Assembly (NCBI GenBank): GCA_964621595.1
Contig: CAZUPO010000001.1
Span: forward strand, 78,758-142,757
Origin: an uncultured Candidatus Saccharibacteria bacterium
GTDB lineage: Bacteria > Patescibacteriota > Minisyncoccia > Phycocordibacterales > UBA5272
Direction: 5' to 3'
DNA length: 64,000 nucleotides
Shown piece by piece: positions 18,945 to 56,523 of the stretch; position 1 is the stretch's first letter; the number at the start of each line of letters is the position of its first letter. The notes below the pieces were generated by a model. It was not told the origin of the DNA. It was given only the letters and a program-made list of their open reading frames with translations, and made no database searches. Made by a program: the position numbers and the translations under genes.

Positions 18945-20648
18945 CTACTTAGAGTCTACGTGACTCCAGGAGTATTCTTTATCCGCAAACACTTTCTTCT
19001 TGGGATTAAGTACGTGAAGTGGGTCAAAAATGTTTTTTGTTGCTTCAAATAATGCAATAATTTCTGGTGAAAACATTTTTGCTAAATACGGTGTACGAAG
19101 CAGACCATCATTGTGTTCACCTGACATAGATCCTTTGTATTGGAATACAAGATCGTATACTTCATCCATCAACTGGTGTAACACCTCAATGATTCCCTCT
19201 TTGTGAATATCAATGAGAGGAATAATGTGGAAGTTCCCATTACCCATGTGTCCGGCGACAGTATAAATAAGATCTTTGTAAACATCCTTTTTGAATATCT
19301 CATCTAGTTTTGGTAGAAATTCTGGTAGATCATTTGGATGAACAACAATGTCATCTATTGTTGGAGCAGTTCTATACCCGTGCATTCGTGAACGAAGAAG
19401 TGCAAAACTTTCTCGTCGAAAAGTCCAATATTTTTTAGCGTCGGATTCTTTTTTGGTTCGTTTAATTGGGAGACCAAATGTTTTCATTCCCTCATATGCG
19501 AGTTCTGCTTGCTTCTCAACCTCTTCTTCTGAATCGCCCGTAAATTCTGCCATAAGAATGATCTTTGGAACACCCCCTGTAAGCACCATCATGAATTCTG
19601 GTAAAAATTGTAGTCCGAGTGTTATCATGTTGCCCCCCATACGTAGTGCTATATCTTTGAAGAATTTCATCGCAATCTTAAAGGTATGATCATCATAGGA
19701 CTCGAGAGATTCTGGCTTATGCTCAAGCATTTTGACAACTATTTCCCCAAGGTGTACGGTTGAGGGCACGAACATGACAAGCATGCGTGAGTGTGTCTTT
19801 GGTCGTACACCAGTGAACGTAACTGAGGATACAGCGGCAAGTGTCCCCTGACTACCAACTACCACTTTTGAAAGATCAAATACTCCTGTTTCTTTGTTAT
19901 AGATATTCCACAGGTAGTACCCGGAAGAATTTTTAGACACCGTAGGCTTAGCAGCCATGATTTCATCATAGTGACTTGTGATGAGGTCATACATTTCCTT
20001 GTGTATACGACCACCTTCACTTTTTTCATTCATTTTTATCTCTAACTCTTCTTTATTGAAAGGACGAAGCAAATCCCTCTCTCCATTGGCATACACAACA
20101 TCGAGGGTCTGCACATAATTTTCCGTTTTACCATAGGTGAGAGTTTTTTCACCGCCAGAGTTATTGGAAACAATACCGCCTATCGCCGCGAGTTCTCGTG
20201 ATGCTGGGTAACTCGGCATGAGCCAACCTTTTTCTAATGTTCGTTTTTCAAAATCTCGGTAATAGACTCCAGGTTCTGCAGTTGCTGAAAGTTCCGTCAC
20301 ATTCGAAACATGGTTCATGAATTTTGAGGTATCAACCACAATGGACGGATTAAGTGGACCACCTGTCATACACGTACCTGCCGCACGAAACGAAACAGAA
20401 ATATCATACCCTTGTTTACGTCCATCTGATACGTACTCAAGAAGTTTTGAGATATCTTTATAGTCTTTTGGATAGACGACAAGTTCTGGCTTGACATAAA
20501 ACAAACTAGTATCTCGTGCAACTTTCTCTCTATCTTCATCTCCAATCGAAACTTCGCCCTGGATAAAGGTCCTTAACGTGTTATAAACATTTTTATAATC
20601 TACTGGATTCATATGATAAAAAGTATACCATGTATGCACCTCAAACAA
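18945..20648 (-). CDS. FAD-linked oxidase (GlcD/D-lactate dehydrogenase family)
   Basis: FAD_binding_4-type motif RAAGTCMTGGP...VVD and C-terminal FAD-oxidase domain; 567 aa. Confidence 0.7.
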   Translation of the reverse strand: MFEVHTWYTFYHMNPVDYKNVYNTLRTFIQGEVSIGDEDREKVARDTSLFYVKPELVVYPKDYKDISKLLEYVSDGRKQGYDISVSFRAAGTCMTGGPLNPSIVVDTSKFMNHVSNVTELSATAEPGVYYRDFEKRTLEKGWLMPSYPASRELAAIGGIVSNNSGGEKTLTYGKTENYVQTLDVVYANGERDLLRPFNKEELEIKMNEKSEGGRIHKEMYDLITSHYDEIMAAKPTVSKNSSGYYLWNIYNKETGVFDLSKVVVGSQGTLAAVSSVTFTGVRPKTHSRMLVMFVPSTVHLGEIVVKMLEHKPESLESYDDHTFKIAMKFFKDIALRMGGNMITLGLQFLPEFMMVLTGGVPKIILMAEFTGDSEEEVEKQAELAYEGMKTFGLPIKRTKKESDAKKYWTFRRESFALLRSRMHGYRTAPTIDDIVVHPNDLPEFLPKLDEIFKKDVYKDLIYTVAGHMGNGNFHIIPLIDIHKEGIIEVLHQLMDEVYDLVFQYKGSMSGEHNDGLLRTPYLAKMFSPEIIALFEATKNIFDPLHVLNPKKKVFADKEYSWSHVDSK

Positions 20649-20655
20649 GCCCCTT

Positions 20656-22401
20656 TTAACCTATTTGCTCTAGTTTTTTGTCTATTTCTTTTTCTGTGAT
20701 TTCAAGTCGCTTTTTGAATTTTTTAAGGATAGTTTGCTCTTCTTTTGTAAGTTCTCGCTTCTTCTCAGCCTTGACCAAAATAGTATGGAATTCTTCCGTA
20801 TCTCGACGAAGGGCGATGACATTAGTGCGCAAAGTATTTTCTACCTCGTCTATAGTACGACGAACCTTTCTTCTAAAGCGTGAAAACTGCACAAGTGAGT
20901 ACCAAAATGTGGCAACAATACAGAATGACGCTATAACAAGGATAAGTACAACTGACAACCAATTCATCACAAAAATACCCATTTTCACAAGAGGCACGTA
21001 GTCTACGATGATAGCCTTGTTGTTGGTGTAATCGCTTGCTGACCCCTTACTATCAACAACTCGAGCTTTCAACTCATAAACACCACGATCAAGATGTTTA
21101 CTCCAAGTAAGGTGGAAAACACCTGCCTCGTCAGAAGTTGTTGTTTCCGTTTCTATGTTGCCATCCTTATCAAGAAGGGCGACTTCTACGGTTGATGACG
21201 GATAAGTTGCACCTGCGACTTTGAGTGTGTTTTCGAAGGTTACGTTTTTTGTGTATTCAGTAATTGTCGGAACAGTAAGTGCTTGAATAGTGAAATCGAT
21301 TGATACAGTACTGGTGTTACCTGCTTTATCTACAGAACTAATTACAACAGTATGTTTACCTGATATTTGTCGTGATAGACGATATAAATGCGTTGGTTCT
21401 ACTTGATATTTAGTAGCCTCTCCCCCATCAACACTCATAGTTATGTAGTCAACACCAGAAAGGGAGTCCTCTGTCAGAATTTGTATTGCCGGGGTCGTAT
21501 TGGTAGTGACAACACCATCTGGGAAAGAAGCAGCGAGAGATTCTGGTGCCTGGGTATCTATTTGGAATTTAAAGTGAGCAACTGGTCCCCATGTCGTACC
21601 ATTTCTAAACTGCACATGCATGTACATGACGCCATCTTGATCGGCTACAAATGATCTATTAGGCACTGGTGGGTCATAGACCTTGGAGGGTGTTGAGTTG
21701 TCTTTTTCGTTATAGAGTGTTCGTACGGCAGTGACTTGAGGCGGCACTGTCCACTCAAATGTAGCCTCCCTGCTTTTATACCACTTATCAGAACTTGGGT
21801 GAGTGGGTGAAGTGATTGCTGGGATAAGAGTATCTGACGTTGGAGTTACTACCACTTGTGGTTCTGGTGTTTCTTGCGCCTCAGTTACGATGACAAAAGC
21901 AGAACCAAGTGTACCTGTTACATTTGTGGCATTGCCGTCATTTGCAAGAACTGATCCCGACTTAACGTTTATATTTATATTCCCGGCTTGCTTTGCTTTA
22001 AAGGTGACGGTAATGACTTTACCGGATGCGCCACTAAACCCAGGATTGAGTGCAACACCCTCCAAGGAGACCGTTCCATTACTATTAGAATATGATGGTT
22101 CTTCCGCCCAAAGATTTATAAAAGATCCCGACTTTGATAACGAGGTAACGGTGAGAACATCTGACGGGAAACTAAGCGCAGCAGAAACGGCATTTATGTT
22201 ATCTGTATTATTACTAACAAGAACATCAACTGTAAAAGTTTTGCCAACTTTGGTTGTGATAGAGGATGGCGTGAGAGAGATATTAGCTGCAAATATCGTC
22301 TGAGGAGCAAAACTAAAGACAACACAAAAGAGACCCAGTACTACGACTCTACTTCGTTGTCTTTTTAGTTGTAACAAGAACCGGTAGATAGTGCTTACCA
22401 T
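20656..22401 (-). CDS. secreted type-I membrane protein with cohesin-like and Ig-like beta-sandwich domains and cytoplasmic coiled-coil tail
   Basis: Signal peptide; cohesin-like block ISLTPSSITTKVGKTFTVDVLVSN...NPGFSGASGKVITVTFKAKQAGNININV; C-terminal TM VVLILVIASFCIVATFWY then KR/E-rich helix. Confidence 0.55.
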   Translation of the reverse strand: MVSTIYRFLLQLKRQRSRVVVLGLFCVVFSFAPQTIFAANISLTPSSITTKVGKTFTVDVLVSNNTDNINAVSAALSFPSDVLTVTSLSKSGSFINLWAEEPSYSNSNGTVSLEGVALNPGFSGASGKVITVTFKAKQAGNININVKSGSVLANDGNATNVTGTLGSAFVIVTEAQETPEPQVVVTPTSDTLIPAITSPTHPSSDKWYKSREATFEWTVPPQVTAVRTLYNEKDNSTPSKVYDPPVPNRSFVADQDGVMYMHVQFRNGTTWGPVAHFKFQIDTQAPESLAASFPDGVVTTNTTPAIQILTEDSLSGVDYITMSVDGGEATKYQVEPTHLYRLSRQISGKHTVVISSVDKAGNTSTVSIDFTIQALTVPTITEYTKNVTFENTLKVAGATYPSSTVEVALLDKDGNIETETTTSDEAGVFHLTWSKHLDRGVYELKARVVDSKGSASDYTNNKAIIVDYVPLVKMGIFVMNWLSVVLILVIASFCIVATFWYSLVQFSRFRRKVRRTIDEVENTLRTNVIALRRDTEEFHTILVKAEKKRELTKEEQTILKKFKKRLEITEKEIDKKLEQIG

Positions 22402-23308
22402 AATGGTACAGTAAGGTCATTACTATAACTATGTATACAAGTATACGGGACTTTTTACCAAGATCTGAAGAGTTTTCAACAGGTGGTAGAGTTACATACG
22501 TATATGTCTTGTTCGTATAGAACACCTTTGCATGCACGTAGACGTGACGAGACTGATTAAGTAGGACGTAGGGATTTGATCCAACATGCCAGGAGATATC
22601 TTCGATATGAAATGGGCTATACTCTCCACTCTCAGCGAATGCAATGTGATCAATGAGTAGACTTGAGTCATGTTCGAAGACAAACATATACAAACCTCCG
22701 TTGGAAACAGCATCATTATGATCCAAGGTATACGATAGCGTTGGTGAAGATACGTAAGAATATATGTTTTCGCTAGTGAGGTCTGGCTGCCGTAACATCT
22801 TGGGGACAAAAATTCTTTTTGCAAACTCCTTATTCGATAGGAGCGTGGCTGTCTCATCGAATGCTCGGATTTGCACTTCTTCTAAACGAAGTTCTGAGAT
22901 ACCTTCTTTTTTAGGAACAAGGTTGATAATAAACAGGAGTCCTGGAGAAGATCCCTTAGTTCTGGAAGAAAGCACTCCGCGAAACCCGCCTGGGATAATC
23001 CCATCAAAAACAATATGCGTTTTGTTATCGATATACTTTTCTTCTGCAATTTTAGGCGGAGTTACCCACAGTGGAATACTTGTGTTACCTGCGATGATAT
23101 TTTTCACAACAAAACTATCACTGCGAAATGTAAACTCACCACCGACACCACTCACAACGTCTCCCTCTGGATCAAGATACACGAGCACGGGTACGGGTTC
23201 TCCATTGGTACCGACCCTAGTAGGAGCCTCTAGGTAGATTCGAGCAGCAAGCGCTTGATCTGCGCCCCAGAGTATACTTAGTATTATAAGGAATAAAAAA
23301 TTTTTCAT
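22349..23308 (-). CDS. secreted protein with C-terminal membrane anchor (hypothetical)
   Basis: Signal peptide MKNFLFLIILSILWGADQALA, C-terminal hydrophobic helix + KKTTK; overlaps downstream gene by 53 nt. Confidence 0.45.
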   Translation of the reverse strand: MKNFLFLIILSILWGADQALAARIYLEAPTRVGTNGEPVPVLVYLDPEGDVVSGVGGEFTFRSDSFVVKNIIAGNTSIPLWVTPPKIAEEKYIDNKTHIVFDGIIPGGFRGVLSSRTKGSSPGLLFIINLVPKKEGISELRLEEVQIRAFDETATLLSNKEFAKRIFVPKMLRQPDLTSENIYSYVSSPTLSYTLDHNDAVSNGGLYMFVFEHDSSLLIDHIAFAESGEYSPFHIEDISWHVGSNPYVLLNQSRHVYVHAKVFYTNKTYTYVTLPPVENSSDLGKKSRILVYIVIVMTLLYHYGKHYLPVLVTTKKTTK

Positions 23309-23314
23309 AATAGA

Positions 23315-24241
23315 TTATCCAGTCCAACAATACGCAAGAATACTTAGGTCGGTGAGATTGACTCTTCCGTCACTATTGAGGTCGACCTTCAGTGGAAATC
23401 CGAGTCGTTTATACCAAAACGCCATAATACTAAAGTCTAACAAATTAACACGACTATCATTATTAAGGTCACATCTAGCGTTCACAAGACTTACCTTTGT
23501 TTTTCTCATAACATTTTGTTTACCAACAGTGAAAAGAAGTGGGTTAGAGAATGCTGACAGGGAACCTGCAGTTGAAGACCGAACCTTTGCTGTTAAATCC
23601 CCTTCTCCCACCTCTTTCGAATCAAACACTAGACGCCACGAACCATCTTTACCTGAGATTAGATTTTTTGTAATACCATTTTTATAATATACCGTAAGTG
23701 CTATATTAGAGTTTGGAATTGCTTTACCAGAGAAGATTATCGGTGTACCTCTCAGAACTTCTATTTTGTCCGAGGTGATGGTTGGAGACAGATAGATATC
23801 GTTAACTGTTGTAACTTCTAGGGGTGGGATATAGATTGTATAGGTTGTAATGGCAGAACTTAGACCATCGTACTCGGCTTTTATTCCAAAAGTATATGTA
23901 CCTGATTTTATGTTACGAACAGGTACTTCGAACGTACCATCCTGATTGGCAGGTAAGGTATTCAGAGGTAGACCATTCTTCAGAACAGTGACCATACTTC
24001 CCGGATAAGCGTACCCGCGGAAAAGTGCAGAATCTGTTCCAGACTCATCAGTGAGTGGAACACCATTATTAGTGATAGGACTTGGGCTGGGTGGCGGAGT
24101 TATGGGAGGGATTCCGTTGTCGTGAACGTCAGCAAATATATCGATAGATTCTTGTAGAGAAGCCGATAACTGGGCAGAAGCAAACTGAGTGAATGAAACC
24201 AAACTAACAAAAACAAAGGCTGTTTTTGTAAGTAGTCTCAT
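23315..24241 (-). CDS. secreted protein with C-terminal type-I dockerin module
   Basis: Signal peptide; C-terminal duplicated Ca-binding loops DLNNDSRVNLLDFSIMAFWY and DLNSDGRVNLTDLSILAYCW. Confidence 0.65.
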   Translation of the reverse strand: MRLLTKTAFVFVSLVSFTQFASAQLSASLQESIDIFADVHDNGIPPITPPPSPSPITNNGVPLTDESGTDSALFRGYAYPGSMVTVLKNGLPLNTLPANQDGTFEVPVRNIKSGTYTFGIKAEYDGLSSAITTYTIYIPPLEVTTVNDIYLSPTITSDKIEVLRGTPIIFSGKAIPNSNIALTVYYKNGITKNLISGKDGSWRLVFDSKEVGEGDLTAKVRSSTAGSLSAFSNPLLFTVGKQNVMRKTKVSLVNARCDLNNDSRVNLLDFSIMAFWYKRLGFPLKVDLNSDGRVNLTDLSILAYCWTG

Positions 24242-24249
24242 GACTCATA

Positions 24250-25233
24250 TTACTTGCCACTAGCAAGACGAGCCTGTTTAATAATCCAAGCGTTATATCG
24301 CTTAAGTGCGAGACGTAGGAGAGCAAATATAACGAGACAGATTACAAGAACAACAACCATAAGGTGCCATGGGAATACGAATAGATAAAGTGACTTAACT
24401 GAAGATCCACTATTTCCGAAAGTGACATTGAGTTTTGCAGAATAAACACCGAGTGCAAAGTTTCTCATTTCATACTTCACGAAAGTAAAGAATGATGCTG
24501 AAGTTGCTGGAGCATCTTCATCTCCCCACCGTACCTCAAAACGACGAATACTGCCTGGTAGAACGTTTCCTTCATTCTTGTTGGCATTTAAACTAACCGT
24601 GGTCATGCCAATCATGTTCTTCACTGTGATATCACCAGTTGGCTTCACGCGATCTCCACCGTTGTTATTGAAACGGTAAATAAAATCTACAGGAAGTGTG
24701 GTGATAAGTTTCTTTTCACCCTTAAGGAAGAATGAGAGTACACCCCCTTCTTCTTTAATATCACCAGATACACGAAGCATCATGAGCATCCCAATCTTTG
24801 CACCCACAGAAACTTCATTTTCACCTGAAGTTGGTGGTACAGTACTTAAGAAGATCGCAGCAAAATGTCCACCCGCATCTGCATCTTGAGGAACCTTAAC
24901 CTTAAAAGGAATTTTGATCTTTTCGCCAGGCTTGATAACAACTTTTTCTGTTACGTCTACCCATGAAGCAAGACCTATTTTTTCTCTGGTGAAATTAGGT
25001 GTTCCAGATTCTCCCTGTGCTTCAAAATTTTCAATAGAAGTATAGTACGTTTGCTCAATACTTTGCTCGTTAATGATCGTAAAGGTCTCCTCTACTATAT
25101 CGCCTGGATTTGCACCAAGTTCAACTTTTGCAGGAGAAATAGTGAGAGCACTGGCATACCCTACCGCAACGAAAGTAATAACTGGTAGCGCGAGTATTTT
25201 TAGGATTTTCTTGAACGTTCTAGCGTGTGTCAT
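24250..25233 (-). CDS. cell-surface protein with C-terminal TM anchor, DUF916/CscA-like
   Basis: Signal peptide, LTISPAKVEL...GGHFAAIFLS block, C-terminal TM + KR tail = architecture of Gram-positive DUF916 WxL-cluster anchor proteins. Confidence 0.4.
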   Translation of the reverse strand: MTHARTFKKILKILALPVITFVAVGYASALTISPAKVELGANPGDIVEETFTIINEQSIEQTYYTSIENFEAQGESGTPNFTREKIGLASWVDVTEKVVIKPGEKIKIPFKVKVPQDADAGGHFAAIFLSTVPPTSGENEVSVGAKIGMLMMLRVSGDIKEEGGVLSFFLKGEKKLITTLPVDFIYRFNNNGGDRVKPTGDITVKNMIGMTTVSLNANKNEGNVLPGSIRRFEVRWGDEDAPATSASFFTFVKYEMRNFALGVYSAKLNVTFGNSGSSVKSLYLFVFPWHLMVVVLVICLVIFALLRLALKRYNAWIIKQARLASGK

Positions 25234-25270
25234 GATAGGTTATTTGTGAGTGAATAATTGCTATACCTCT

Positions 25271-26359
25271 TTAGAAGTTAGCGGTTGCTACGTATGTGAG
25301 GTTGGCAGCATAGGTACCTGCTTCTGTAATCGCTGCGATGTTTGTAACATATCGTAATGAAAGAGTTGCTGTCGCGGTTGATCCTGTACCACTAGCAAAC
25401 AAGTCCGATGTAGTTGCTGTTGCTCCATATGCATATGATGATGCCGCTCCGTAGGCTGAAGCAATACTAACCCCCGTTCCACCTGAGAGAGTTGCCCTAA
25501 TACCGAACTGTTCCGTTCCAGGTGTTGAAGACGCATAACTAGAGCCAATTCCAGAAATAGTATTTGATGCATTTTGTAGTGAAGTAAGTGTTTGACCACG
25601 TACTGTAACAGAGAAACCAGACGCCGCGTTTGTTGATACACCTAATGAATGAGCAACTGTTTCAGTAGAATCACCTGAGGTATTTGTAGAAGAAGCGTAT
25701 TTTGCGCCACCTGAACCAAGAGTTCCGAAGTAGATAGTTGATGTAGAAATTGTAAACGTAAGAGACTGGTTAACTGTTCCTGTCATAGCAACAGTGTCAT
25801 CATCCAATATGTACACACCAATAGAACCTGTGTCTCCAAGAGTTCCCGCCAAGTCTACAGAGTACTGACCAGGTGTTGCTGGGTTTGTAATCTGTGATGC
25901 TCCTGCTGCTTGCGAGGTAGCATTCGAACCGATCTCAATCTGCACACATCGGTTAGCAGGAATTGTTGCAGTTCCTGAGGTGAAAGTAATAGTCTGACCT
26001 GACTGTGCTACACCCCATGTGTTACCAGATGCAGATGTTGAGAGTAGCGCATCGGTGAAGCCAGAACATGTTGCGGATGTTGAGGTTGCTAAGTCTACGT
26101 TGTTAACAGAGAAAGAGCCCATAGTAAACCCTGCTGGAAAAGTAACTGTAATCGTCTGACCAGCTGCGAGACCTGTTGGTGTAACGAACTGAATAGTATG
26201 ATCTGATAATGTACTAATTTTTACACTAGACATTGAATCAGAAAGAGACGACATTGATGCTGCATACGCAACGTTTAGTTGTATTACAGTACTACCAACA
26301 AGGACCGCAACACCCGTCAAAAAACTGAGTGCTGATTTATAATAACGCTTAAGAGACAT
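25271..26359 (-). CDS. secreted Thr/Ser/Gly-rich beta-rich surface protein, YVATANF-terminus family (paralog 1)
   Basis: Sec signal (AYA cleavage), C-terminal ~170 aa conserved with next two genes ending LTYVATANF. Confidence 0.55.
   Translation of the reverse strand: MSLKRYYKSALSFLTGVAVLVGSTVIQLNVAYAASMSSLSDSMSSVKISTLSDHTIQFVTPTGLAAGQTITVTFPAGFTMGSFSVNNVDLATSTSATCSGFTDALLSTSASGNTWGVAQSGQTITFTSGTATIPANRCVQIEIGSNATSQAAGASQITNPATPGQYSVDLAGTLGDTGSIGVYILDDDTVAMTGTVNQSLTFTISTSTIYFGTLGSGGAKYASSTNTSGDSTETVAHSLGVSTNAASGFSVTVRGQTLTSLQNASNTISGIGSSYASSTPGTEQFGIRATLSGGTGVSIASAYGAASSYAYGATATTSDLFASGTGSTATATLSLRYVTNIAAITEAGTYAANLTYVATANF
25959..26083. repeat. 125-nt tract 100% identical to 27164-27288 (inside paralogs 1 and 2)
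   Basis: Direct comparison of the two gene sequences; flanking sequence is only ~75% identical. Confidence 0.8.
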
Positions 26360-26475
26360 AATGATTTGTTTTACGTTTAAATAAAATAAGACTTCTACAA
26401 TCTTACTACTTCTAAGTTTATCACTACAAAATAGGTTTTTCTGTGGATAAAGTACTGTTTTGATCGCTAACCAAA

Positions 26476-27573
26476 CTAGAAGTTAGCAGTTGCTACATAG
26501 ATAACGTTCGCAACGTAGGTACCCGCTTCGGTTAGTGATGATATGTTGGCAACATACCGGAGTGAATATGTGGTGGTATTAGTCGCACCGGACCCTGTGG
26601 CAAAAGTGGCGGAAGTAGTGGCGGTAGCATCGTATCCGTAAGATGTTGCAGCTGAGTACGTTGAATCTATTGTAGACCCTGTTCCTCCAGAGGCTGTTGC
26701 TCTAATACCAAATTGTTCTGAGTTGGGGGTAGAAGAGGCCGCTGTTGCTCCTATAAATGCTATTGTATTTGACGCATTTTGTTGTGAGGTAAGTGTTTGT
26801 CCACGGACAGAAATAGTGTAACCTGAGCCAGCGTTTGTAGACACGGCAAGCGTGTGCGCAATAGTTTCTGTGGAATCCCCCAATACGTTCGTTGAGGAAG
26901 CAAACTTCGCCGCACCTGTACTTAGTGCCCCAAAGTAAATGGTTGATGTGGAAATAGTGAACGTAAGAGACTGGGAGACTGTTGCACTAATGGTAACGGT
27001 ATCGTTAGTAATAATATTTTGGGTCGTGGAACCTGTATCAGTAAACGTACCAGCAATATCGGTAGTAGTAGCACCAGCGGTAGCTGGGTTTGTAATCTGA
27101 GATACACCAGTTGCTCCAGATGTCGCATTGGAACCAATCTCAATCTGAATACAACGATTCGCTGGAATTGTTGCAGTTCCTGAGGTGAAAGTAATAGTCT
27201 GACCTGACTGTGCTACACCCCATGTGTTACCAGATGCAGATGTTGAGAGTAGCGCATCGGTGAAGCCAGAACATGTTGCGGATGTTGAAGTTGCCAGGTC
27301 TATGTTGTTCACAGAGAATGTGCCCATGTTGTATCCGAGCGGGAATGTAATAGTAATTGTCTGACCAGCCGCGAGACCTGTTGGGGTAACAAACTGGAAG
27401 GTATGGTCAGAAAGTGTACTAACCTTAAGGGTTGATTGGGAGTCAGATACTGAAGTAAGGGCGGCGGCGTAGGCAACTTCTAGTTGTGAACCGATGGTTC
27501 CAACTGCGACGCTAATAATCACCATGATACTTAGTGTTGAGTGAAATATCGAGTGTTTAAAAATTTTCGTCAT
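26476..27573 (-). CDS. secreted surface protein, YVATANF-terminus family (paralog 2)
   Basis: About 70% identical to paralog 1 incl. identical ATSTSATCSGFTDALLSTSASGNTWGVAQSGQTITFTSGTATIPANRC; ends VIYVATANF. Confidence 0.55.
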   Translation of the reverse strand: MTKIFKHSIFHSTLSIMVIISVAVGTIGSQLEVAYAAALTSVSDSQSTLKVSTLSDHTFQFVTPTGLAAGQTITITFPLGYNMGTFSVNNIDLATSTSATCSGFTDALLSTSASGNTWGVAQSGQTITFTSGTATIPANRCIQIEIGSNATSGATGVSQITNPATAGATTTDIAGTFTDTGSTTQNIITNDTVTISATVSQSLTFTISTSTIYFGALSTGAAKFASSTNVLGDSTETIAHTLAVSTNAGSGYTISVRGQTLTSQQNASNTIAFIGATAASSTPNSEQFGIRATASGGTGSTIDSTYSAATSYGYDATATTSATFATGSGATNTTTYSLRYVANISSLTEAGTYVANVIYVATANF

Positions 27574-27651
27574 GCAGTAACAAACCTAATGCACAATTTG
27601 GTTACTTATTACTTCAGTATACCACTTCTGCCCTATTTTTATTGGGGAAAA

Positions 27652-30600
27652 CTAAAAGTTTGCTGTCGCTACATACACAACACTTGTTGAGAAAACACTT
27701 GGTGGTGTGGTTGCTGCTATATTAAGAAGATACCTAACAGAAAATGTTGTTGTGGCATTATCACCGACTGTAGCACTAGCGATTGAAGATGACGTTGTGG
27801 CTGTTGCGGAATATGCAAAACCACTCGCGCTATAAGGAGTACTAACTGTTCCTGATCCACCGGTTGCTGTGAGACGAATGCCGAATTGTTCGGTATTGGT
27901 CGCAGATGCTGTATTGGTATTACCTATAGCATTAATAGTTGTGCTCCCTGAAGTCAATGTTGCGCCACGAACACTAATCGTATAGCCGTTAGTTGCATTT
28001 GTGATGACAGAAAGGGTGTGTGCCTCAGTTTCTACATCGCTCCCAAGAAGACTGGTACTCGATGCGTACCGCGATGCTACTGGACTAGCATTACCAAAAT
28101 AGACACTGGATGTTGAAATTGTAAAAGTTAATACCTGGGGTATGATTCCATTACTCTCCTCATCCCACTCCACTAAAAAACGATATCGTACGTTAGCGTC
28201 CCCCGTCGCCTGTTCATTATATAGTGCTATACCTTCACCAGATTTTAAAACCAGTTCATCGCCATAATAAATGCTGTCTTCTTGATCACCAAACGGTTGA
28301 TTAACTACGCCCGGTGTAGTTCCGCTAACGAGGCGAGACGACGTCGATTGCATTAATGAAACAGTAACGCCCGTTGTTCTTATTTCTGCTGTTGTTGTAG
28401 CAGTATTTGAGTGTTTCTTAGGAATACTTGTCGAGGCAACAGAGGTTCCGCCAGAATGTGAAGAGATTTTACGTAGACTAAACGGAGTATACGCCGGCAC
28501 CGTTGCTGCCCCACTACGATTTACCTTAGTCATTAATTTTTTAATGATAAAGTTTTTTCCTGACCCAGTTGGATTAAAAAAAGTTGAATACACATACCCA
28601 AGAGAAGTACTTTGATTTATTGGACCACTCGTATACAAATATTGACCTAAAGAAGACGGCGCACTCGCGGCCTCTTCCCACTCAATTAAAAGCCTTACAC
28701 GGAGGTCAGCATCTCCCGCTGCGTCTTGGTATAGACCAACTCCTTCTCCGGGCTGGAGAACAACGTCTTCGTTGTTAGAAAAAAGAACTTCTGCGTAACC
28801 AGTATTTCCTGCTGCAGCACTCGCTACAGCTCCCGGTGTTTGGATGGCTATCATTTTGGAATCAGTTGTACCAGAGAATGTCGCCGTTACACCTGTGTGT
28901 CGAATTTCCATAGAACTCGTGGCGCTCCCTGTATTTTTCTTTGGATAACTGCTCGAGGCAACGAGAGTACCTGCCGAGGCGGCACTGAGACGGCGCAATT
29001 GAATTGGTATATACACTGCCGCCGCAACGGTATCTACTCTGATTCGTATGCGTTTTATAATTGCTGTCTTACCAGAACCAGATGGATTAAAAAAAGTTAC
29101 GTAGTTATAACTTGCTCCAGTATTTCCATTTATTGGGCCTATAGACATAACATACTGGTTTTGGGCGGTTGGGGCGCTTGCTTCCTCATCCCATTCAATA
29201 AGAATTTTTACTGATAGAGCAGCACTTGAGGTAAGTACATCATTATATAAGCCAATCCCCTCCCCCTCTTTAATAACAAGTTTCTCATTATCACCAAAAA
29301 CAATTTCTTGTTGTCCAATAACTTGCCCGACAGCACCAGCGCCAGTAACAGAAATAATTTTTGCATTTGCATCCCCAGCATAGGTTGCCGTTATTGCGGA
29401 AGTACAGGCCTGTAAACACCAGCGTATCTCCATAGAACTTGTGGCACTACCTGTATGTTTTTTTGGGTAACTACTGGATGCAACAAGAGTGCCCGCACTC
29501 GCTGCAATTATGCGCCTAAATTGTAACGAAGTATATGCTGACGTAGTGGTAGCATTCGCACGAATTACAAGCCTTTTTATTATAGCTGTCTTTCCAGATC
29601 CAACAGGATTAAAAAATGTATATAGTGAAGTATTGGCTGCTGTTGCGGCAGCAACTTTGTCTGATGCCCAAATATACTCACCCTGAGAACTCGGTGTGTT
29701 ACCTGTCGTGACTTCACCCCACTCTATAATCATACGTGTTAACTGATTAGCGTTACCTGCTGCTTCTGATATAAGAGCAATACCTTCACCTGGCTGAAGG
29801 ATAAGTTGCTCATCGTGATGATCAAAATCAATCTCCTGCCATCCTGTGGCTTGCCCCGCCGCACCACAGGGAGTTACGTGCCCGAGGCGAGCATCTGTAC
29901 CACCAACTTGAGTTACTGTTACGTTGGTATACCGAAATTCCATCGAAGTCGTAGCACCGCTCGTATTTTTCTTTGGAATACTTGAGGATGCGACCGCAGT
30001 ACCAGCAGATGCTGCGGATATTCTTTTAAGAACAATGTTGTTGGTGTATACCGCTCCGGCATCGCATGTTTCCGAGCCAAACCATATTCTTTTTACGACC
30101 GCCGTTTTACCTGATCCTGATGGGTTAAAAAAGGAATTATATACATAATTTGCTGCTGCAGCATTTTCCACACGTGGAAATGCAAATAAAAACTCATTTT
30201 GCGAGGGTGGTGGATTAACAGTCTCATCCCACTCAATAAAAACACGTACCGCCGCTGCTGCGGTTCCAGCCGCTTCTTGATAGACAGCGACGCCTTCCCC
30301 TGGTTGCAAGACCAGAGTTTCTTCACTAGAATCAAACGTGATATCTCGACGACTATAGTACGATCCAACAGCACCTGAAAGAGGTTGTCCGAGGATGCGG
30401 GAATCAGTTGTACCAGACAAGGTTACAGTGGGGCCCGCTGTACGAACCTCCATAATTGAATCTGATGTACTAGCATTTTTATAAATATAACTAGTAGATG
30501 CGATTTGTGTTCCTCCTGTTGATGAAGATATCCTTCTCACACTTAAGTTAACGTAGTTAGACGCCGTGGAAGAAGCGGTATTCGCGCGAACTGCTATACG

Positions 30601-30936
30601 CTTTATAGATGCAGATCTTCCTGACCCGACTGGATTAAAAAAGGCTACGTAGACATAATTGGCTGTAACACTACCATTTACCGGACCAATATCAAGCATA
30701 TACTCTTTTTCTGCGGGGTTGATTGCAGCATGAAGTCTGCTGGTGTTCACGAGAAAAGAATCTACAACATTTTTGTTCTTTTTTGCTAAATAAATTTTAT
30801 CTACAATATTAGTATTATGAAAAGACTCTTTAACATTCGTAAAGACATAAAGAAGTGCCTCCGTATTAAAACTATATGAGAGAGTTACGCCTATAAGAAC
30901 AAGAACTCCTATCTTTTTAATGAGCCTGCGTAACAT
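27652..30936 (-). CDS. large secreted surface protein: five ~170-aa internal repeats + YVATANF-family C-terminal domain (paralog 3)
   Basis: 1094 aa; repeats each contain NYVY..FFNP.GSGK.A.IKRI..RAN and end LQPGEGI.LY......IEWDE; C-terminus VVYVATANF. Confidence 0.55.
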   Translation of the reverse strand: MLRRLIKKIGVLVLIGVTLSYSFNTEALLYVFTNVKESFHNTNIVDKIYLAKKNKNVVDSFLVNTSRLHAAINPAEKEYMLDIGPVNGSVTANYVYVAFFNPVGSGRSASIKRIAVRANTASSTASNYVNLSVRRISSSTGGTQIASTSYIYKNASTSDSIMEVRTAGPTVTLSGTTDSRILGQPLSGAVGSYYSRRDITFDSSEETLVLQPGEGVAVYQEAAGTAAAAVRVFIEWDETVNPPPSQNEFLFAFPRVENAAAANYVYNSFFNPSGSGKTAVVKRIWFGSETCDAGAVYTNNIVLKRISAASAGTAVASSSIPKKNTSGATTSMEFRYTNVTVTQVGGTDARLGHVTPCGAAGQATGWQEIDFDHHDEQLILQPGEGIALISEAAGNANQLTRMIIEWGEVTTGNTPSSQGEYIWASDKVAAATAANTSLYTFFNPVGSGKTAIIKRLVIRANATTTSAYTSLQFRRIIAASAGTLVASSSYPKKHTGSATSSMEIRWCLQACTSAITATYAGDANAKIISVTGAGAVGQVIGQQEIVFGDNEKLVIKEGEGIGLYNDVLTSSAALSVKILIEWDEEASAPTAQNQYVMSIGPINGNTGASYNYVTFFNPSGSGKTAIIKRIRIRVDTVAAAVYIPIQLRRLSAASAGTLVASSSYPKKNTGSATSSMEIRHTGVTATFSGTTDSKMIAIQTPGAVASAAAGNTGYAEVLFSNNEDVVLQPGEGVGLYQDAAGDADLRVRLLIEWEEAASAPSSLGQYLYTSGPINQSTSLGYVYSTFFNPTGSGKNFIIKKLMTKVNRSGAATVPAYTPFSLRKISSHSGGTSVASTSIPKKHSNTATTTAEIRTTGVTVSLMQSTSSRLVSGTTPGVVNQPFGDQEDSIYYGDELVLKSGEGIALYNEQATGDANVRYRFLVEWDEESNGIIPQVLTFTISTSSVYFGNASPVASRYASSTSLLGSDVETEAHTLSVITNATNGYTISVRGATLTSGSTTINAIGNTNTASATNTEQFGIRLTATGGSGTVSTPYSASGFAYSATATTSSSIASATVGDNATTTFSVRYLLNIAATTPPSVFSTSVVYVATANF

Positions 30937-31939
30937 ACGAGTAGGTTTTAAATCCTATATCCCTAAAAATAGTAGTTATTTCTTCTTCATTGAGGTGCCC
31001 TTTTTTCTTTTGTTCGATCATTACCGTGATAATATACGGCCGACCTGGGGCGTATACAATCCCAGAGTCTGCTCGTACATTTTCATCTATACGTATACCA
31101 GTTTTATGTACAAAAGGCACAGTCTCAGGAATACTTTGACCAAGAAGATCTCTTGGGGCATGGGAAAGAATGTCTAAGAAAAGTTGGGCGTATTCTTGGT
31201 TTAGATACGTTGCATTATAAAGAGATCGAAAAAAAATAGAATATCTCTTAGCTGTGATACGATTGTCTGCATCTACTTGATTCTTGGGTGATCGCTTTAA
31301 TGCCTCAATAATATCATCTAAACCCATATGAACATAAACGTCTTCGAGTTCTTCTCCGTCTAGGTTTCTTAGTAGTACAAAGTGTGCTGTATTGTCTGAA
31401 TCAATGAGTGAGGCTTCCAAAAATTGTCTGATAGTAAACGTACTACCTGATGGCTGTTTATAAAGATTGCCATATTCGCTATCTTTGTCATCATCAAGAA
31501 TTACTAATTCATTTGTTAATTTCCATTTCTTATCTTGAATTTTTTTCATAATAGCCATTGCAACAGGAATTTTAATGAGACTTGCCGGCCAAATCTTTTC
31601 ATCCTTATTCACCGCAATGTTGGCACCGGTTGGCAAATACTCGAAGTACACAGAGACAAGATAATCATCGCGATTTTCGTATGTTTTAGTAAGATAATCA
31701 CGTAGTTCTTGGAAATCAACAATACGATCTTTTTTCTCAATAATGAGAAGGGCGGGGTTAAGAAACGTTAATTTAGTGTTTTCTTTATGAGAAAGTACTT
31801 GGCTTGAAATAAAAACACCAATACAAAATCCAGCAAAAAGTATAGTGATGCTGACTAGCATTCTTTTTTCTAAAAAGAATGCTAGTACTGCTTGTTTTTT
31901 AACATGGTAATTATTGCTCATTATTATCTTCAATGACAA
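30917..31939 (-). CDS. membrane-anchored serine hydrolase, class-A beta-lactamase / PBP-like fold
   Basis: N-terminal TM, SxxK (PASLIKIP) and SDN (IDSDNTA) motifs. Confidence 0.5.
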   Translation of the reverse strand: MSLKIIMSNNYHVKKQAVLAFFLEKRMLVSITILFAGFCIGVFISSQVLSHKENTKLTFLNPALLIIEKKDRIVDFQELRDYLTKTYENRDDYLVSVYFEYLPTGANIAVNKDEKIWPASLIKIPVAMAIMKKIQDKKWKLTNELVILDDDKDSEYGNLYKQPSGSTFTIRQFLEASLIDSDNTAHFVLLRNLDGEELEDVYVHMGLDDIIEALKRSPKNQVDADNRITAKRYSIFFRSLYNATYLNQEYAQLFLDILSHAPRDLLGQSIPETVPFVHKTGIRIDENVRADSGIVYAPGRPYIITVMIEQKKKGHLNEEEITTIFRDIGFKTYSYVTQAH

Positions 31940-34283
31940 AATTTAAATCTTCGAGTTTCTCCTTGGTTACAAGTGTATCAAGTTCTTCTTTGCTACGAAA
32001 TACATCTACTGTGGTTAAGTTATCATCAGAAAATACCTCGCCTGTAAATTCAGAATAAAATGAAAAATTACTAGCGCCAACGTAAACCTTCCAGACAAGA
32101 TTACTGAAGTCAACCTCTCCACGCTCACCATTACCTTTGTCGTATGGTGGAATGATACGGTAATCAATAGTTTTTGAATCTATGTTATAAGTAAACACCA
32201 TGGTTTCATCTTCAGAAAGCCAGAAAATATTTCTATCTTTAATAGCAAATGGGTAATCTTTTGCTGGTGGAGCGATACCCTCTTCATCTATTTTATTCTC
32301 TGTACCATCTTGTAAATTAAAAATCCAAAGTGTGTCTATATCATCCTGAGATAAATGCGCCACCACGATGCCACCGACTGTCCCCTTGATACTTTTAATT
32401 TCATCTTTTTTAAAATCAGGGAGGGGAAGTTTTTTTCTCTTTTCTTCTTCTTTAATAAGATCTAGTATTTGTTCTATACTCCCGTCTTTTGGTAGGGCGC
32501 GATTTAATTTATACCAACTATTTTTTTGTATCAGAGTACTTGCAACACTAGAGGTGGCTGTAGAAGTGGCCAATATTATATCCTCAGAAATAACGCTCGT
32601 AGTAGACGAAATCTCAGCAGGCGTCGTGGTACTAGCAGCACCTGTAACTAACACAGTGCCAGAGGCTGTTTCTATTGTAGTTGCCGATGATGAAGTTGCT
32701 TCTGGGTACATGTACCAAACCTCCTCCTTGTCCGTATCACTATTTTTTAAACGCACAATACGAACATCTCCAACTGTCACATCCTCCAAAATAGTGTCTC
32801 GTTCAAAATCTGGGTGTATGTGCTCAACGATTGTTTCGTATAATACTTCAACTTTAATACCGTCTAGATACATGCTTGGGATACTGTCAATGTGCCTTTT
32901 AGGCACCACCTTGACCTGGAGTCGTTCCATATCATTCCATGTAGTTGTTGCATTTAACGGGATTTCAAACGTTCTGTATTTCATTGATTCTCGATCGAGT
33001 TCACCAAGACTGCTCCAGGTAACTCCGTCAAAAGTGTATAGAACTTCGACAAGAGCACTTGCATGAGTCAATGTGCCCGCTCCTTCTTCTGTGGTTGTGG
33101 CAGTAGTGGTTGCAACCTCTGTAGAAGACGTCACGACCTCGCTACTTGTGGCTAATAGCAACATATCTTGAGTTGTCGAAGAAAGGTCTACCGCTTGCGT
33201 AGTTATCTCAGTGAGAACAGATGATTCTTCTGTCGGAACAACCATATCTTCAACAGAAGACGTGGAGGCTGTCGTTTGCACTACAGGGGCTTCTGTTGTT
33301 GGTTGAGATATATTTTCTGATAGATCTGATATAGGGACAGGCTCTGTCATTACATTCGACGATGTTGCTTCTTCAGCAAAAACATGTGTAATTATTTGAC
33401 CACTTAAAAAATTATACAGCATGTCTAAATATGACGTCGGCTGTGATTCACTTGGAGATGTTTCTACCGGTGAAGAAGGTTGGGTGGGTGATTCTATGTG
33501 TTCTACTGGGGTTGGTGCCGCCTCTTGTACTGGCTGTGTTTCACTTTGTATTGTACTTGATGATACGGTTTCAGTTTGGTTGGTATCCCCTACTGATGTA
33601 GTTGGTTCTGTTGGTTGTATAAGTGACTGGACCACATTAATCAAAGAGTCGATAATCCCCGCTTGTGTAGTCGTGCCAACACTTTCTGTGGAAGTACTTT
33701 CTGATGTAGTTGTTGCCGTAGACGTAGACAACGTAAATGTCACTTCTGTCGTAGAAGAAACATCCAGTATCTCGCCACTTGATGATGCAAACGAATCTCC
33801 AATGATAGTATCTTCTAGGAGAAAGTCTCCTCCGACCGCCATAGAAACCGTAACAAGCATTTTTGTTGGCTTAGTATTACTCTTGAAGTCACCAGAAAAA
33901 TCTCCGCAGTATATTTCTGCTTGAGTGTCTTTGGGTAGTACCGCTGAATTACTCACAGTGAAATGATCCGTATCAACATTAGAAATATTCTCTGGCGTAC
34001 CTTCAGCGTGATCCGGGTTTAGCCACCCACCCAAACACGTATTTGGATAAAATACGACACTGTCGGCAGTTCCATGCGGAGAGATGAAAACACCGAGCAC
34101 AAATAAAAGCACTATAGTGGAGAGCGCCACTCTCCAACGTTTGCGCGACTTCGCCTCTTCCAATAACTTCTGAGAGGTAAAAATATTTTCAAGTGAGCGC
34201 TTTACACTCTCGATATGAGATTCGGTTCTTTTGAGGGAATGGTGTATGAAGTTTTTTTTCTTTGGCGAGGGTTTCTTTTCCAT
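31911..34283 (-). CDS. signal-anchored surface protein with long Ser/Thr-rich linkers (hypothetical)
   Basis: 790 aa; N-terminal K-rich cytoplasmic segment, one TM, extensive T/S/E-rich low-complexity, structured C-terminal ~300 aa. Confidence 0.45.
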   Translation of the reverse strand: MEKKPSPKKKNFIHHSLKRTESHIESVKRSLENIFTSQKLLEEAKSRKRWRVALSTIVLLFVLGVFISPHGTADSVVFYPNTCLGGWLNPDHAEGTPENISNVDTDHFTVSNSAVLPKDTQAEIYCGDFSGDFKSNTKPTKMLVTVSMAVGGDFLLEDTIIGDSFASSSGEILDVSSTTEVTFTLSTSTATTTSESTSTESVGTTTQAGIIDSLINVVQSLIQPTEPTTSVGDTNQTETVSSSTIQSETQPVQEAAPTPVEHIESPTQPSSPVETSPSESQPTSYLDMLYNFLSGQIITHVFAEEATSSNVMTEPVPISDLSENISQPTTEAPVVQTTASTSSVEDMVVPTEESSVLTEITTQAVDLSSTTQDMLLLATSSEVVTSSTEVATTTATTTEEGAGTLTHASALVEVLYTFDGVTWSSLGELDRESMKYRTFEIPLNATTTWNDMERLQVKVVPKRHIDSIPSMYLDGIKVEVLYETIVEHIHPDFERDTILEDVTVGDVRIVRLKNSDTDKEEVWYMYPEATSSSATTIETASGTVLVTGAASTTTPAEISSTTSVISEDIILATSTATSSVASTLIQKNSWYKLNRALPKDGSIEQILDLIKEEEKRKKLPLPDFKKDEIKSIKGTVGGIVVAHLSQDDIDTLWIFNLQDGTENKIDEEGIAPPAKDYPFAIKDRNIFWLSEDETMVFTYNIDSKTIDYRIIPPYDKGNGERGEVDFSNLVWKVYVGASNFSFYSEFTGEVFSDDNLTTVDVFRSKEELDTLVTKEKLEDLNFVIEDNNEQ

Positions 34284-54165: not shown

Positions 54166-55218
54166 TTAATTTATAAAGACTGGTTCCATTCTTTTAGAAA
54201 CTGCCGTAGGCTTTTCTGCTTTACCAACTCTAAAAATAAAACCAATATGAGCACCATTGGTATTGAAAGAATTTTCAAGTACATGGAATGATTTGTTGAT
54301 AAGATTAAGGTGTTCTGTATTAAAAATTGTATCTCCGCCATTTTTACAAAACTGATGTAAGTAAAGGGTCCCATTACAAGGATGTACTGCTAGACCTAGT
54401 TTGGTTGCCATTAACCAAGATCTTTGCACGGCGCGACCAAGATGTAAAAAATCAACTGCTGAAAAACCCTTCATTGTAAGGGCACAAAAGGCCGCTGAAT
54501 TGGTATATTTTTCACCATTCTCTTTGCTAATCTTATCGGCTATTTTTAAAAAAAAGTTAAAAACCTTTAATATATTCCAGTTTTTGAATAGTTTAACAGC
54601 TCCGAGTTGATGAGGTAAAAATTCAAGAGTATCAATAAAAAAACCACCAGATTTATTTTCGTCTTCTTTTCTCCAAATAATATGTTTGTAAAAAAAATCA
54701 TGCATGGACTTAGTTTCAAATAACACTTTCTCATGCGCGGAAAGAGCATACCCAACATCCTTCATCAAGATTGGATCGTCAACAAAAACAAGAGAACCTT
54801 TTTCATAGGAAGTTACGGAGTTTAAGATATCTATTTTTTCTTTTTCATTTAATTTTTCTTTTTTATAATCTTTTCGATTAGTACATCGTGTTCTTATAAA
54901 ATTATAAAGAGTATCTTTTTGAGAATTTTGTTTTTGAAAAAAAATATCTGCTGTGTGCGAAAGATTGCTATTGTCAGGTAATAATGTAACGACTGGATTA
55001 TATCCACGTTCCAGTGCGCTTAAAAAAATATTTTCTATTAGCGCTCCGTGTGCTATGTAAGAGCCTCTTTGTTTTATGTTATATAAGGATTTATCAGCTT
55101 CTTCAATGTTAAAGATAGACAAAATATTGTTTTTGTAAAGAAATTTCCATGGTTGGCAATTCTCTCCTGATGGAGCACAGACTCCATCCCTTACGATATC
55201 TTTAATCTCTTCTGGCAT
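54166..55218 (-). CDS. two-lobed nitroreductase-fold oxidoreductase (SagB/McbC-like candidate)
   Basis: APSGENCQPWKF FMN-nitroreductase motif near N-terminus; 350 aa (about twice a canonical nitroreductase). Confidence 0.6.
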   Translation of the reverse strand: MPEEIKDIVRDGVCAPSGENCQPWKFLYKNNILSIFNIEEADKSLYNIKQRGSYIAHGALIENIFLSALERGYNPVVTLLPDNSNLSHTADIFFQKQNSQKDTLYNFIRTRCTNRKDYKKEKLNEKEKIDILNSVTSYEKGSLVFVDDPILMKDVGYALSAHEKVLFETKSMHDFFYKHIIWRKEDENKSGGFFIDTLEFLPHQLGAVKLFKNWNILKVFNFFLKIADKISKENGEKYTNSAAFCALTMKGFSAVDFLHLGRAVQRSWLMATKLGLAVHPCNGTLYLHQFCKNGGDTIFNTEHLNLINKSFHVLENSFNTNGAHIGFIFRVGKAEKPTAVSKRMEPVFIN

Positions 55219-55243
55219 ATTTATAGTTTATCATCTAGAAAGA

Positions 55244-56431: not shown

Positions 56432-56523
56432 ATCTATTAATTATAAACTAAGCATAACACAAATGAGCTAATAGCAACATGTTACCTAAACAACGAACAA
56501 TTGGAGGTAGATACCGACTGATG

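Follow-up and report, generated by a model that had tools for sequence, protein, structure and literature searches.

In a 64,000-nucleotide stretch of DNA (the window, 64 kb) from an ultrasmall bacterium of the candidate phyla radiation (CPR), which we read as a member of the Parcubacteria group, nine consecutive minus-strand genes at positions 20656-34283 make up an operon that is the subject of this analysis. To our knowledge, Pam pili are so far the only pilus class that is specific to CPR bacteria. These pili are thought to make the first contact with host cells. Our results lead us to the view, which we consider fairly probable, that the nine genes encode a donor-strand pilus of the Pam type, in a version that belongs to the Parcubacteria group and in which a cohesin-dockerin joint, and not the transmembrane terminator PamR, holds the base. 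The genes, with lengths in amino acids (aa) and the evidence on which each was named, are as follows.

20656..22401, minus strand: 581-aa long-stalk anchor candidate (PF00963 on the isolated domain)
22349..23308, minus strand: 319-aa short-stalk anchor candidate (BLASTP and hhalign to the 581-aa cohesin)
23315..24241, minus strand: 308-aa dockerin protein, candidate pilus terminator/adaptor (Pfam Dockerin_1)
24250..25233, minus strand: 327-aa membrane-anchored chaperone candidate, PamC/PamD equivalent with a WxLIP/DUF916 fold (AlphaFold2 model, Foldseek)
25271..26359, minus strand: 362-aa shaft pilin, PamB type, linker strand 'DTVAMTGTV' (NF058581, 66.8 bits)
26476..27573, minus strand: 365-aa shaft pilin, PamB type (NF058581, 63.8 bits)
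27652..30936, minus strand: 1094-aa candidate tip adhesin (NF058581, 67.8 bits; five repeats)
30917..31939, minus strand: 340-aa membrane-anchored serine hydrolase, class-A beta-lactamase / DD-peptidase fold (Pfam Beta-lactamase2, 3.1e-41)
31911..34283, minus strand: 790-aa signal-anchor protein, first operon gene (open reading frame, transmembrane residues 49-73)

All nine open reading frames (ORFs) that the initial annotation had proposed were found, and in operon order (790, 340, 1094, 365, 362, 327, 308, 319, and 581 aa) they are separated by -29, -20, 78, 116, 37, 8, 6, and -53 nucleotides (nt). The further claim that every product carries a signal peptide or signal anchor held for most of them, in which an N-terminal hydrophobic segment exceeds the hydropathy threshold; two features, the signal peptide in the 308-aa protein and the hydrophobic stretch at the C terminus of the 319-aa protein, score under the threshold and were read from the sequence. 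By hydropathy, the 327-aa and 581-aa proteins have a clear C-terminal transmembrane (TM) segment.

Pilins, candidate chaperone, and the cohesin-dockerin pair

Pam pili were described in a 2026 preprint on Candidatus Mycosynbacter amalyticus, a parasitic CPR bacterium of the Saccharimonadia, in which cryo-electron microscopy (cryo-EM) of the filament identified the pilins PamA and PamB, joined by donor-strand exchange (bioRxiv 10.64898/2026.03.03.709456). Each of these pilins has an N-terminal beta-sandwich, a strand serving as linker, and an open C-terminal Ig-like domain that takes up the linker of its neighbor; AlphaFold models were the basis for describing PamC and PamD as PapD/FimC-like chaperones that keep a C-terminal TM helix, PamT as a tip subunit with an acceptor domain only and no linker, and PamR as an RbmA-like protein that carries a TM helix and closes off the last pilin with its N-terminal strand (bioRxiv 10.64898/2026.03.03.709456). 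The pili detach easily, and the preprint, which describes them from one Saccharimonadia species, names Saccharimonadia and Microgenomatia as their main carriers (bioRxiv 10.64898/2026.03.03.709456). There are zero mentions of cohesin, dockerin, WxL/DUF916, or Parcubacteria in it, and a literature search returned no paper that ties a cohesin or a dockerin to CPR pili.

In the window operon, the 362-, 365-, and 1094-aa proteins are paralogs with a common C-terminal domain (CTD) of ~165 aa ending in YVATANF, as had been recognized from the start, with identities of 71% (the 365-aa against the 362-aa paralog) and 47%; they are the only three ORFs in the window that bear it. The domain had been thought to belong to no family that could be named. 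It is in fact recognized in all three proteins by NCBIfam NF058581 ("Pam pilus system pilin subunit"), with the scores listed above against a cutoff of 55, and this profile identifies the YVATANF domain as the CTD of Pam pilins. The suggestion that its end resembles those of SCPU proteins found no backing, as PF05229 gave no match to the full proteins at E<=1 or to the isolated C-terminal domains at E<=10; WxL families likewise matched neither the operon proteins nor the isolated C-terminal domains.

Because the YVATANF domain is the Pam pilin CTD, the structure at issue would be a pilus and not the S-layer that had been offered as one option, and the general idea behind that proposal, a self-assembling surface structure for attachment in a reduced-genome bacterium of the episymbiont type, with exposed repetitive subunits joined to a membrane anchor by a cohesin-dockerin tether, was correct. 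The ~360-aa pilins and the PamB-like pilins, the latter taken from loci that carry a PamR equivalog, align as families (hhalign, 99.7%, E 1.8e-26) from residues 10-362 to residues 17-360, that is, over their full length. The 365-aa pilin consists of a signal peptide, an N-terminal beta-sandwich with one Cys pair (cysteines 101 and 141), the linker strand 'DTVTISATV', and the C-terminal domain, and the ~360-aa pilins as a group conserve 'DDTVx(I/V)(S/T)ATV' right upstream of CTD strand A. The strand immediately ahead of the NF058581 domain, 'SLTFTIS...YFG', has a counterpart, 'SLEVIV', in PamT-like proteins; since these keep the strand and PamT has no linker, we take 'SLTFTIS' to be the first strand of the acceptor domain, with the linker lying just upstream. 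Homology and the conserved linker strand together suggest that the window pilins would form a donor-strand-exchange filament.

There are 826 homologs of the 362-aa pilin, the best of them 60-73% identical and located in Parcubacteria-labelled metagenome-assembled genomes (MAGs). The N-terminal domain segment of the pilins drew only noise in Pfam and PHROG scans. No significant match among PDB sequences was obtained with a pilin, the 581-aa protein, or family profiles for the 581-aa protein, the 327-aa protein, and the pilin CTD, and the PamA/B structures and the WxL chain of 9i25 are therefore unmatched by sequence.

The third paralog, the 1094-aa protein, begins with a signal peptide, followed by repeats at residues 63-922 (nt 28171-30750) and by the Pam pilin C-terminal domain at residues about 936-1094 (nt 27655-28131). 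The 170-aa repeat of the initial annotation is present in five copies of 170-174 aa with pairwise identities of 35-50%. The pilin linker motif 'DDTVxISATV' was not found in this protein and CTD strand A ('LTFTIS') is present; the large CTD proteins inspected in related loci (971-2575 aa) likewise lack the linker and retain the acceptor domain. By analogy with FimH or PapG, an acceptor domain without a linker would be the signature of a tip subunit, and PamT itself is not recognizable here, as the PamT equivalog model (NF058579, cutoff 240) gives best scores of 23.4 and 15.7 bits, from the common domain only. The ~171-aa repeat is unrelated to the N-terminal domain of the pilins (hhalign probability 0.1%), and segment scans against Pfam and PHROG returned noise.

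Every 171-aa repeat also contains 'FFNPxGSG(K/R)(T/S)', which draws weak AAA, ABC, CobW, and guanylate-kinase matches. We rejected an AAA, ABC, or other P-loop identity for the 1094-aa protein as spurious: the 'GSGKT' of this exported repeat is a false friend for annotation, because it does not fit a Walker A motif and the repeat is extracellular and beta-rich.

The 327-aa protein had been described as an anchor resembling DUF916 proteins. Its AlphaFold2 model (predicted local distance difference test [pLDDT] score, 83.7) has two Ig-like domains and a C-terminal TM helix, and the best PDB match in Foldseek is Enterococcus faecium WxLIP (9i25/9i1y, E 6.5e-11), followed by the chaperone-usher chaperones CsuC, CfaA, FimC, and Caf1M, and then by RbmA. 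The DUF916 call is therefore correct at the level of fold, and the layout agrees with it as well; the Pfam family WxLIP_PGBD does not reach threshold with the window protein (15.7 bits, gathering score 27.3, E 0.016) and reaches E<=0.01 in 17 of 55 orthologs. As to the role, an assembly chaperone is more likely than an anchor. The most conserved element of the family is a beta-hairpin (strands 121-130 and 146-155, with a low-confidence loop between them), which by analogy is the counterpart of the F1-G1 donor hairpin and of the hairpin of WxLIP, a protein of two Ig-like domains and a TM helix for which insertion of that hairpin into WxL has been proposed (PMC10599100).

Homologs of the 327-aa protein (phmmer, 1e-11 to 1e-40) are present in the pam loci of Saccharimonadales, and in most related loci they adjoin pilin genes, often with two copies per Saccharimonadales locus, like PamC and PamD. 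A chaperone function, which is a prediction in the source paper too, would fit this placement. In one such pam locus (L060:13866-14861, L060:10503-11546), one chaperone passes Pfam WxLIP_PGBD, with 35.2 bits against the gathering score of 27.3. Because a pam chaperone passes this profile and WxLIP is the top fold match of the window protein, a common chaperone ancestor of the WxL/Csc clusters of Firmicutes and the Pam pili of CPR bacteria is suggested; the Pam pilin CTD profile has no PDB sequence match and so gives no sequence-profile link to WxL.

Both partners of the proposed cohesin-dockerin pair were confirmed. The 308-aa protein matches PF00404 (Dockerin_1) with 30.5 bits (gathering score 22.9), along with Big_6 and Big_13, and contains the two calcium-loop repeats expected of a dockerin, DLNNDSRVNLLD from residue 258 and DLNSDGRVNLTD from residue 287. 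Behind its signal peptide comes a short N-terminal strand (residues ~24-40, nt 24122-24172), which a Pro-rich linker connects to a pair of Ig-like domains; the duplicated dockerin forms the C terminus (residues 257-308, nt 23318-23473). The dockerin is flanked by Cys257 and Cys305; the family consensus ('cDlN...aycWTG') retains both, and a disulfide between them may clamp the domain. The family is large, with 225 clusters at E<=1e-30, and a terminal dockerin is present in 146 of the best 150; many share the N-terminal strand, and many have variable N-terminal insertions. Family members place the strand just past the signal peptide, ahead of a linker, two Ig-like domains, and the dockerin, and nearly all of 26 that were inspected have the strand motif (V/I)(S/T)(I/V)(S/T)AxV followed by a P-/G-rich linker.

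In the 581-aa protein, a signal peptide precedes the cohesin (residues 36-175, nt 21877-22296), from which a flexible linker leads to three Ig-like domains; a TM helix and a cytoplasmic tail follow. The isolated domain (window:21877-22296, minus strand) matches PF00963 with 34.6 bits (E 2.7e-8, gathering score 24.1), and an ortholog scores 31.6 bits with Pfam Cohesin. Routine annotation will usually miss this cohesin, since full-length scans seldom match it: the full-length window protein gives only Big_13 in Pfam, with no cohesin, and a full-length match to the cohesin was obtained in only 2 of 56 orthologs. Likewise, Foldseek with the whole chain of the AlphaFold model (pLDDT 82.5) returned only multi-Ig arrays. 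In the 319-aa protein, the signal peptide is followed by a divergent domain of the cohesin type, then by another beta domain and a C-terminal segment of weak hydrophobicity. This protein has no Pfam match of its own, with noise only in Pfam and PHROG scans of the second domain, and is tied to the 581-aa cohesin domain by BLASTP (5e-5) and by family-versus-family hhalign (99.0%, E 2.4e-18, residues 13-208). From these domain assignments, the two membrane-bound cohesin proteins and the dockerin protein probably clip the fiber to the cell, by a cohesin-dockerin interaction that would be calcium dependent.

The ~75 residues past the TM helix of the 581-aa protein (~505-580, window 20656-20900) form a helical tail that is highly conserved among orthologs, which suggests oligomerization or an intracellular partner.

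Two architectures of Pam loci

A scan of one genome per species yielded 58 loci, for which up to 10 kb of sequence on either side was retrieved and the ORFs were searched with the nine window proteins, the PamR sequence, and cohesin and dockerin hidden Markov models. Class 1 comprises 25 species-level genomes labelled Parcubacteria, Paceibacterota, Nomurabacteria, Kerfeldbacteria, Magasanikiibacteriota, and similar, and all of those with a specific label lie within the NCBI "Parcubacteria group." Their loci run from a large CTD protein through one to four ~360-aa pilins to the chaperone, the dockerin protein, and two cohesin proteins. In all 25 genomes the dockerin gene comes directly after the chaperone gene and is followed by the cohesin genes, of which there are two in 23 genomes (one of the remaining two contigs is truncated); the gene for the 319-aa protein stands directly after the dockerin gene in every case. 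Two long contigs have a gene order identical to that of the window.

Class 2 consists of 30 loci, mostly labelled Saccharimonadales or Saccharibacteria, with pilins and one or two chaperone homologs. A search with the PamR sequence (phmmer) found PamR in 25 of these 30 loci, nearly always as the next gene after a chaperone gene, and in no dockerin-type locus; conversely, cohesin and dockerin genes are present in 0 of the 30 loci within the retrieved sequence. Dockerin/cohesin genes and PamR are thus mutually exclusive in the 58-locus set, and the dockerin gene occupies the position that PamR holds in Saccharimonadales-type loci. The comparison loci are bona fide pam loci because they contain the PamR equivalog, as in L060, where PamR scores 389 bits (cutoff 300) and the pilin CTD 166.8 bits. 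Since the ~360-aa pilins align full-length with the PamB-like family of class 2, the operon in the window is of the Pam pilus type and represents a second class of architecture. The N terminus of PamR in bona fide pam loci resembles the local pilin linker; in L041, for example, the pilin has IVLNGTMPE and PamR has VALNGVMPE. None of the nine window proteins matches PamR (NF058578) at E<=1.

The window operon thus resembles the Pam pilus in its pilin C-terminal domain, its full-length PamB-type pilins, its PapD-like TM-anchored chaperone, its CPR host, and in having neither an usher nor a sortase. It differs in the absence of PamR and PamT, in a single chaperone gene where Pam has two, in a tip candidate that is a 1094-aa five-repeat protein, in the dockerin-ending protein and two cohesin membrane proteins found at the position of PamR, in the addition of the 790-aa protein and a beta-lactamase-fold hydrolase, and in having no ATP-synthase gene among the flanking genes inspected. 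The initial annotation had held that the operon corresponds to no described system, which was right only in part: the Pam pilus is described, and an operon of this composition, with cohesin and dockerin, is not, because the published pam operon lacks both (0 occurrences in the paper). What is new relative to Pam, and undescribed, is a dockerin and cohesin base instead of PamR and a giant repeat tip candidate instead of PamT. The Pam system is therewith common also in the Parcubacteria group, a very large section of the CPR of which hardly any member has been cultured.

In a MAG labelled only 'bacterium' (L035:747-6627), a 1215-aa CTD protein, a pilin, and a chaperone homolog occur without PamR, dockerin, or cohesin, which may be a third architecture. 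Two short contigs with Pam-type genes (L029 and L039) come from MAGs titled Gammaproteobacteria and Magnetospirillaceae; they are most likely mis-binned CPR DNA and no evidence of Pam pili beyond the CPR.

Assembly model and its alternatives

Our findings suggest the following course of assembly. Sec would export all operon products, and the membrane-anchored 327-aa chaperone would cap the open CTD of each new subunit via its conserved beta-hairpin. The 1094-aa protein, with an acceptor domain and no donor linker, would start the fiber, end up at the tip, and display its five 171-aa repeats as an adhesin. The two ~360-aa pilins would then join below the tip, each inserting its inter-domain linker strand into the CTD of the preceding subunit, until the 308-aa protein ends growth; a stop is expected at this point because that protein has a donor-like N-terminal strand and no acceptor domain. 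Its C-terminal dockerin would bind the cohesin of the 581-aa protein (long stalk), of the 319-aa protein (short stalk), or of both, tying the fiber to the cell. Domain identities, homologies, and conserved gene order come from the data above, and filament formation from cryo-EM of homologs; the tip, terminator, and chaperone roles and the cohesin-dockerin contact are inferred. The fuller proposition, in which a dockerin protein that mimics the pilin linker terminates the pilus and fastens the fiber by a cohesin-dockerin joint on transmembrane stalks, and in which Pam and WxL systems share common descent, is one that we put forward tentatively, as possible and somewhat short of an even chance.

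Such a machine would have likenesses to several known systems. With the chaperone-usher pili (Pap, Fim, Csu, CFA/I), it shares the two-Ig-domain chaperone fold, the donor-strand logic (a tip adhesin that only accepts and has a large N-terminal part, and a terminator that only donates), and the C-terminal G-x-Y...aromatic motif of the subunits. Unlike these pili of diderm bacteria, the window chaperone is TM tethered and the donor strand is an inter-domain linker instead of an N-terminal extension; no outer-membrane usher family matches any of the nine proteins, and no sequence homology to chaperone-usher systems is detectable. The cohesin has the canonical fold, a nine-stranded jelly-roll, and the dockerin the duplicated calcium loop of known cohesin-dockerin pairs, and, as in anchoring scaffoldins, the cohesin is carried by cell-surface anchoring proteins. 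In contrast to known pairs, there are no enzymes, the dockerin is on a pilus-operon protein, a conserved Cys pair flanks it, and anchoring would be via TM helices instead of S-layer homology (SLH) domains or sortase. A lead toward TasA and archaeal bundling pili proved not relevant.

Several observations weigh against a pilus fastened in this way. The source on Pam is a preprint in which the chaperone and terminator roles are themselves based on AlphaFold models. A position-specific scoring matrix (PSSM) of pilin linkers finds its best match at the mature N terminus in 15 of 26 dockerin proteins, a figure that is not a probability because the 26 proteins are mutually related and most of their scores do not rise above the 95th percentile for background ORFs; the strand of the window's own 308-aa protein is degenerate (ESIDIFADV) and is missed by this matrix. 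Homology of the dockerin protein to PamR is weak: the families align by hhalign at 50.7% (E 1.6e-4) from the N-terminal strand through the Pro-rich spacer and first Ig domain, and BLASTP between the proteins is not significant. The case for the five-repeat protein as a candidate tip adhesin consists of the missing linker motif and the gene order, and the presence of one dockerin against two differing cohesin proteins is not accounted for.

The degenerate strand and the weak similarity to PamR, together with the ready detachment of Pam pili stated in the source paper and the large size and variable N-terminal insertions of the dockerin family, would fit with two systems housed in one operon, namely, a Pam-type pilus that is anchored or released in some other way and an independent cohesin-dockerin module that displays the two-Ig dockerin protein as an adhesin in its own right. 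We consider this unlikely, while granting it some weight, because the dockerin and cohesin genes follow the chaperone gene in every one of the 25 class 1 genomes, exclude PamR and hold its position, and belong to an operon that contains no other candidate terminator or acceptor-less donor; moreover, the strand-like segment after the signal peptide, with its flexible linker, recurs through the dockerin family. A different arrangement could be proposed because WxLIP structures, among them the WxLIP-WxL complex 9i25, are the best structural match of the 327-aa protein, because its orthologs and Pam-locus chaperones give WxLIP_PGBD matches, and because WxLIP has been described as a TM-helix protein with two Ig-like domains whose hairpin enters WxL (PMC10599100). 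The DUF916/WxLIP-fold protein would then permanently anchor the three YVATANF proteins to the wall as monomers by strand insertion, which has been suggested for the WxLIP and WxL proteins of Firmicutes, in a non-filamentous complex like those of WxL/Csc clusters. The domain order of the 327-aa protein and its C-terminal TM helix do match those of WxLIP in Firmicutes (DUF916-DUF3324-TM; 9i1y, 9i25), but the operon has neither WxL-domain proteins nor an LPXTG partner, and the CTD profile gives no PDB sequence match. The partners of the window chaperone are pilins that would polymerize, full-length homologs of PamB-type proteins whose relatives were resolved as filaments by cryo-EM, and they retain the linker strand needed to polymerize; we therefore regard a monomeric complex as quite improbable.

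The presence of a true cohesin and a true dockerin, and of several Ser/Thr-abundant, beta-rich proteins, could also bring to mind a cellulosome- or S-layer-like assembly that organizes enzymes or forms a surface lattice. Such an assembly is very hard to reconcile with the operon, which encodes no carbohydrate-active enzyme domain (Pfam, NCBIfam), multi-cohesin scaffoldin, or lattice protein, has one cohesin per protein, and carries its sole dockerin on a protein with only Ig-like domains; there is no further dockerin or cohesin in the remainder of the window, and the repeated subunits are members of the pilin family. The cellulosome and S-layer readings were rejected on these grounds.

If the reading of the operon as a Pam-type pilus with a cohesin-dockerin base is true, this would be the first pilus anchored by a cohesin-dockerin joint, and the joint would explain how the fiber is retained without an usher, a sortase, or PamR. 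The widespread non-cellulosomal cohesin-dockerin pairs would thereby gain a physiological role. Furthermore, with the Pam chaperones as members of the DUF916/WxLIP family, the WxL/Csc clusters of Firmicutes and the Pam pili of the CPR would be descendants of one chaperone-assisted strand-complementation system of monoderm-type envelopes. In organisms whose hosts are for the most part not known, the five-repeat tip protein would be a candidate adhesin for host recognition.

Accessory genes and flanking DNA

The two genes at the start of the operon may belong to the tip end of the pilus, to judge from their co-occurrence with the tip gene and from an apparent fusion. The 340-aa hydrolase has the motifs SLIK (SxxK), SDN, and KTG, read from its translation, and scores 89 bits with the NCBIfam class A model, under the cutoff of 200. 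Its gene overlaps both neighbors, by 29 nt on one side and by 20 nt with the 1094-aa tip gene on the other. The hydrolase and the five-repeat tip protein occur together in 11 of 11 loci, and the hydrolase is missing in 4 of 4 closely related loci in which a 329-aa CTD protein replaces the five-repeat tip.

The 790-aa protein (24% S+T) has a Ser/Thr-rich middle and is conserved in its C-terminal part; it matches no family in Pfam, NCBIfam, or PHROG, and segment scans gave noise only. Most of the closer Parcubacteria-type loci have a homolog at this position. Its residues 60-148 and 242-487 are similar to the beginning of a 1982-aa CTD protein (L033:3932-9877, domain E 2.5e-10), a likeness that may reflect a fusion of genes by which the 790-aa protein is tied to the tip subunit. 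A part in the pilus for this protein or for the beta-lactamase-fold hydrolase is a suggestion drawn from such associations.

On the same strand, 7 nt past the last operon gene, lies a gene for an FAD-linked oxidase (FAD_binding_4 and FAD-oxidase_C, 18945-20648), which keeps this position in both related contigs checked (L001 and L002) and may be co-transcribed with the operon. A promoter scan gave counts equal to the shuffled expectation. Terminator-like sites were in slight excess (19 versus 12.2 in shuffled sequence, standard deviation 3.3), with none at an operon boundary, and none of the intergenic RNA folds beat their shuffles (z-scores -1.2 to +0.9). The Rfam scan of the window found five tRNAs and nothing else.

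Elsewhere in the window, at 54166-58050, the GC content falls to 0.33-0.34, compared with about 0.41 in the remainder. Two histidine-kinase genes (50416-52098 and 52537-54159) adjoin this stretch, whose products are a nitroreductase-family protein, a ThiF-family protein, and a 508-aa protein without a family; the stretch may be an acquired modification or peptide-maturation cassette.

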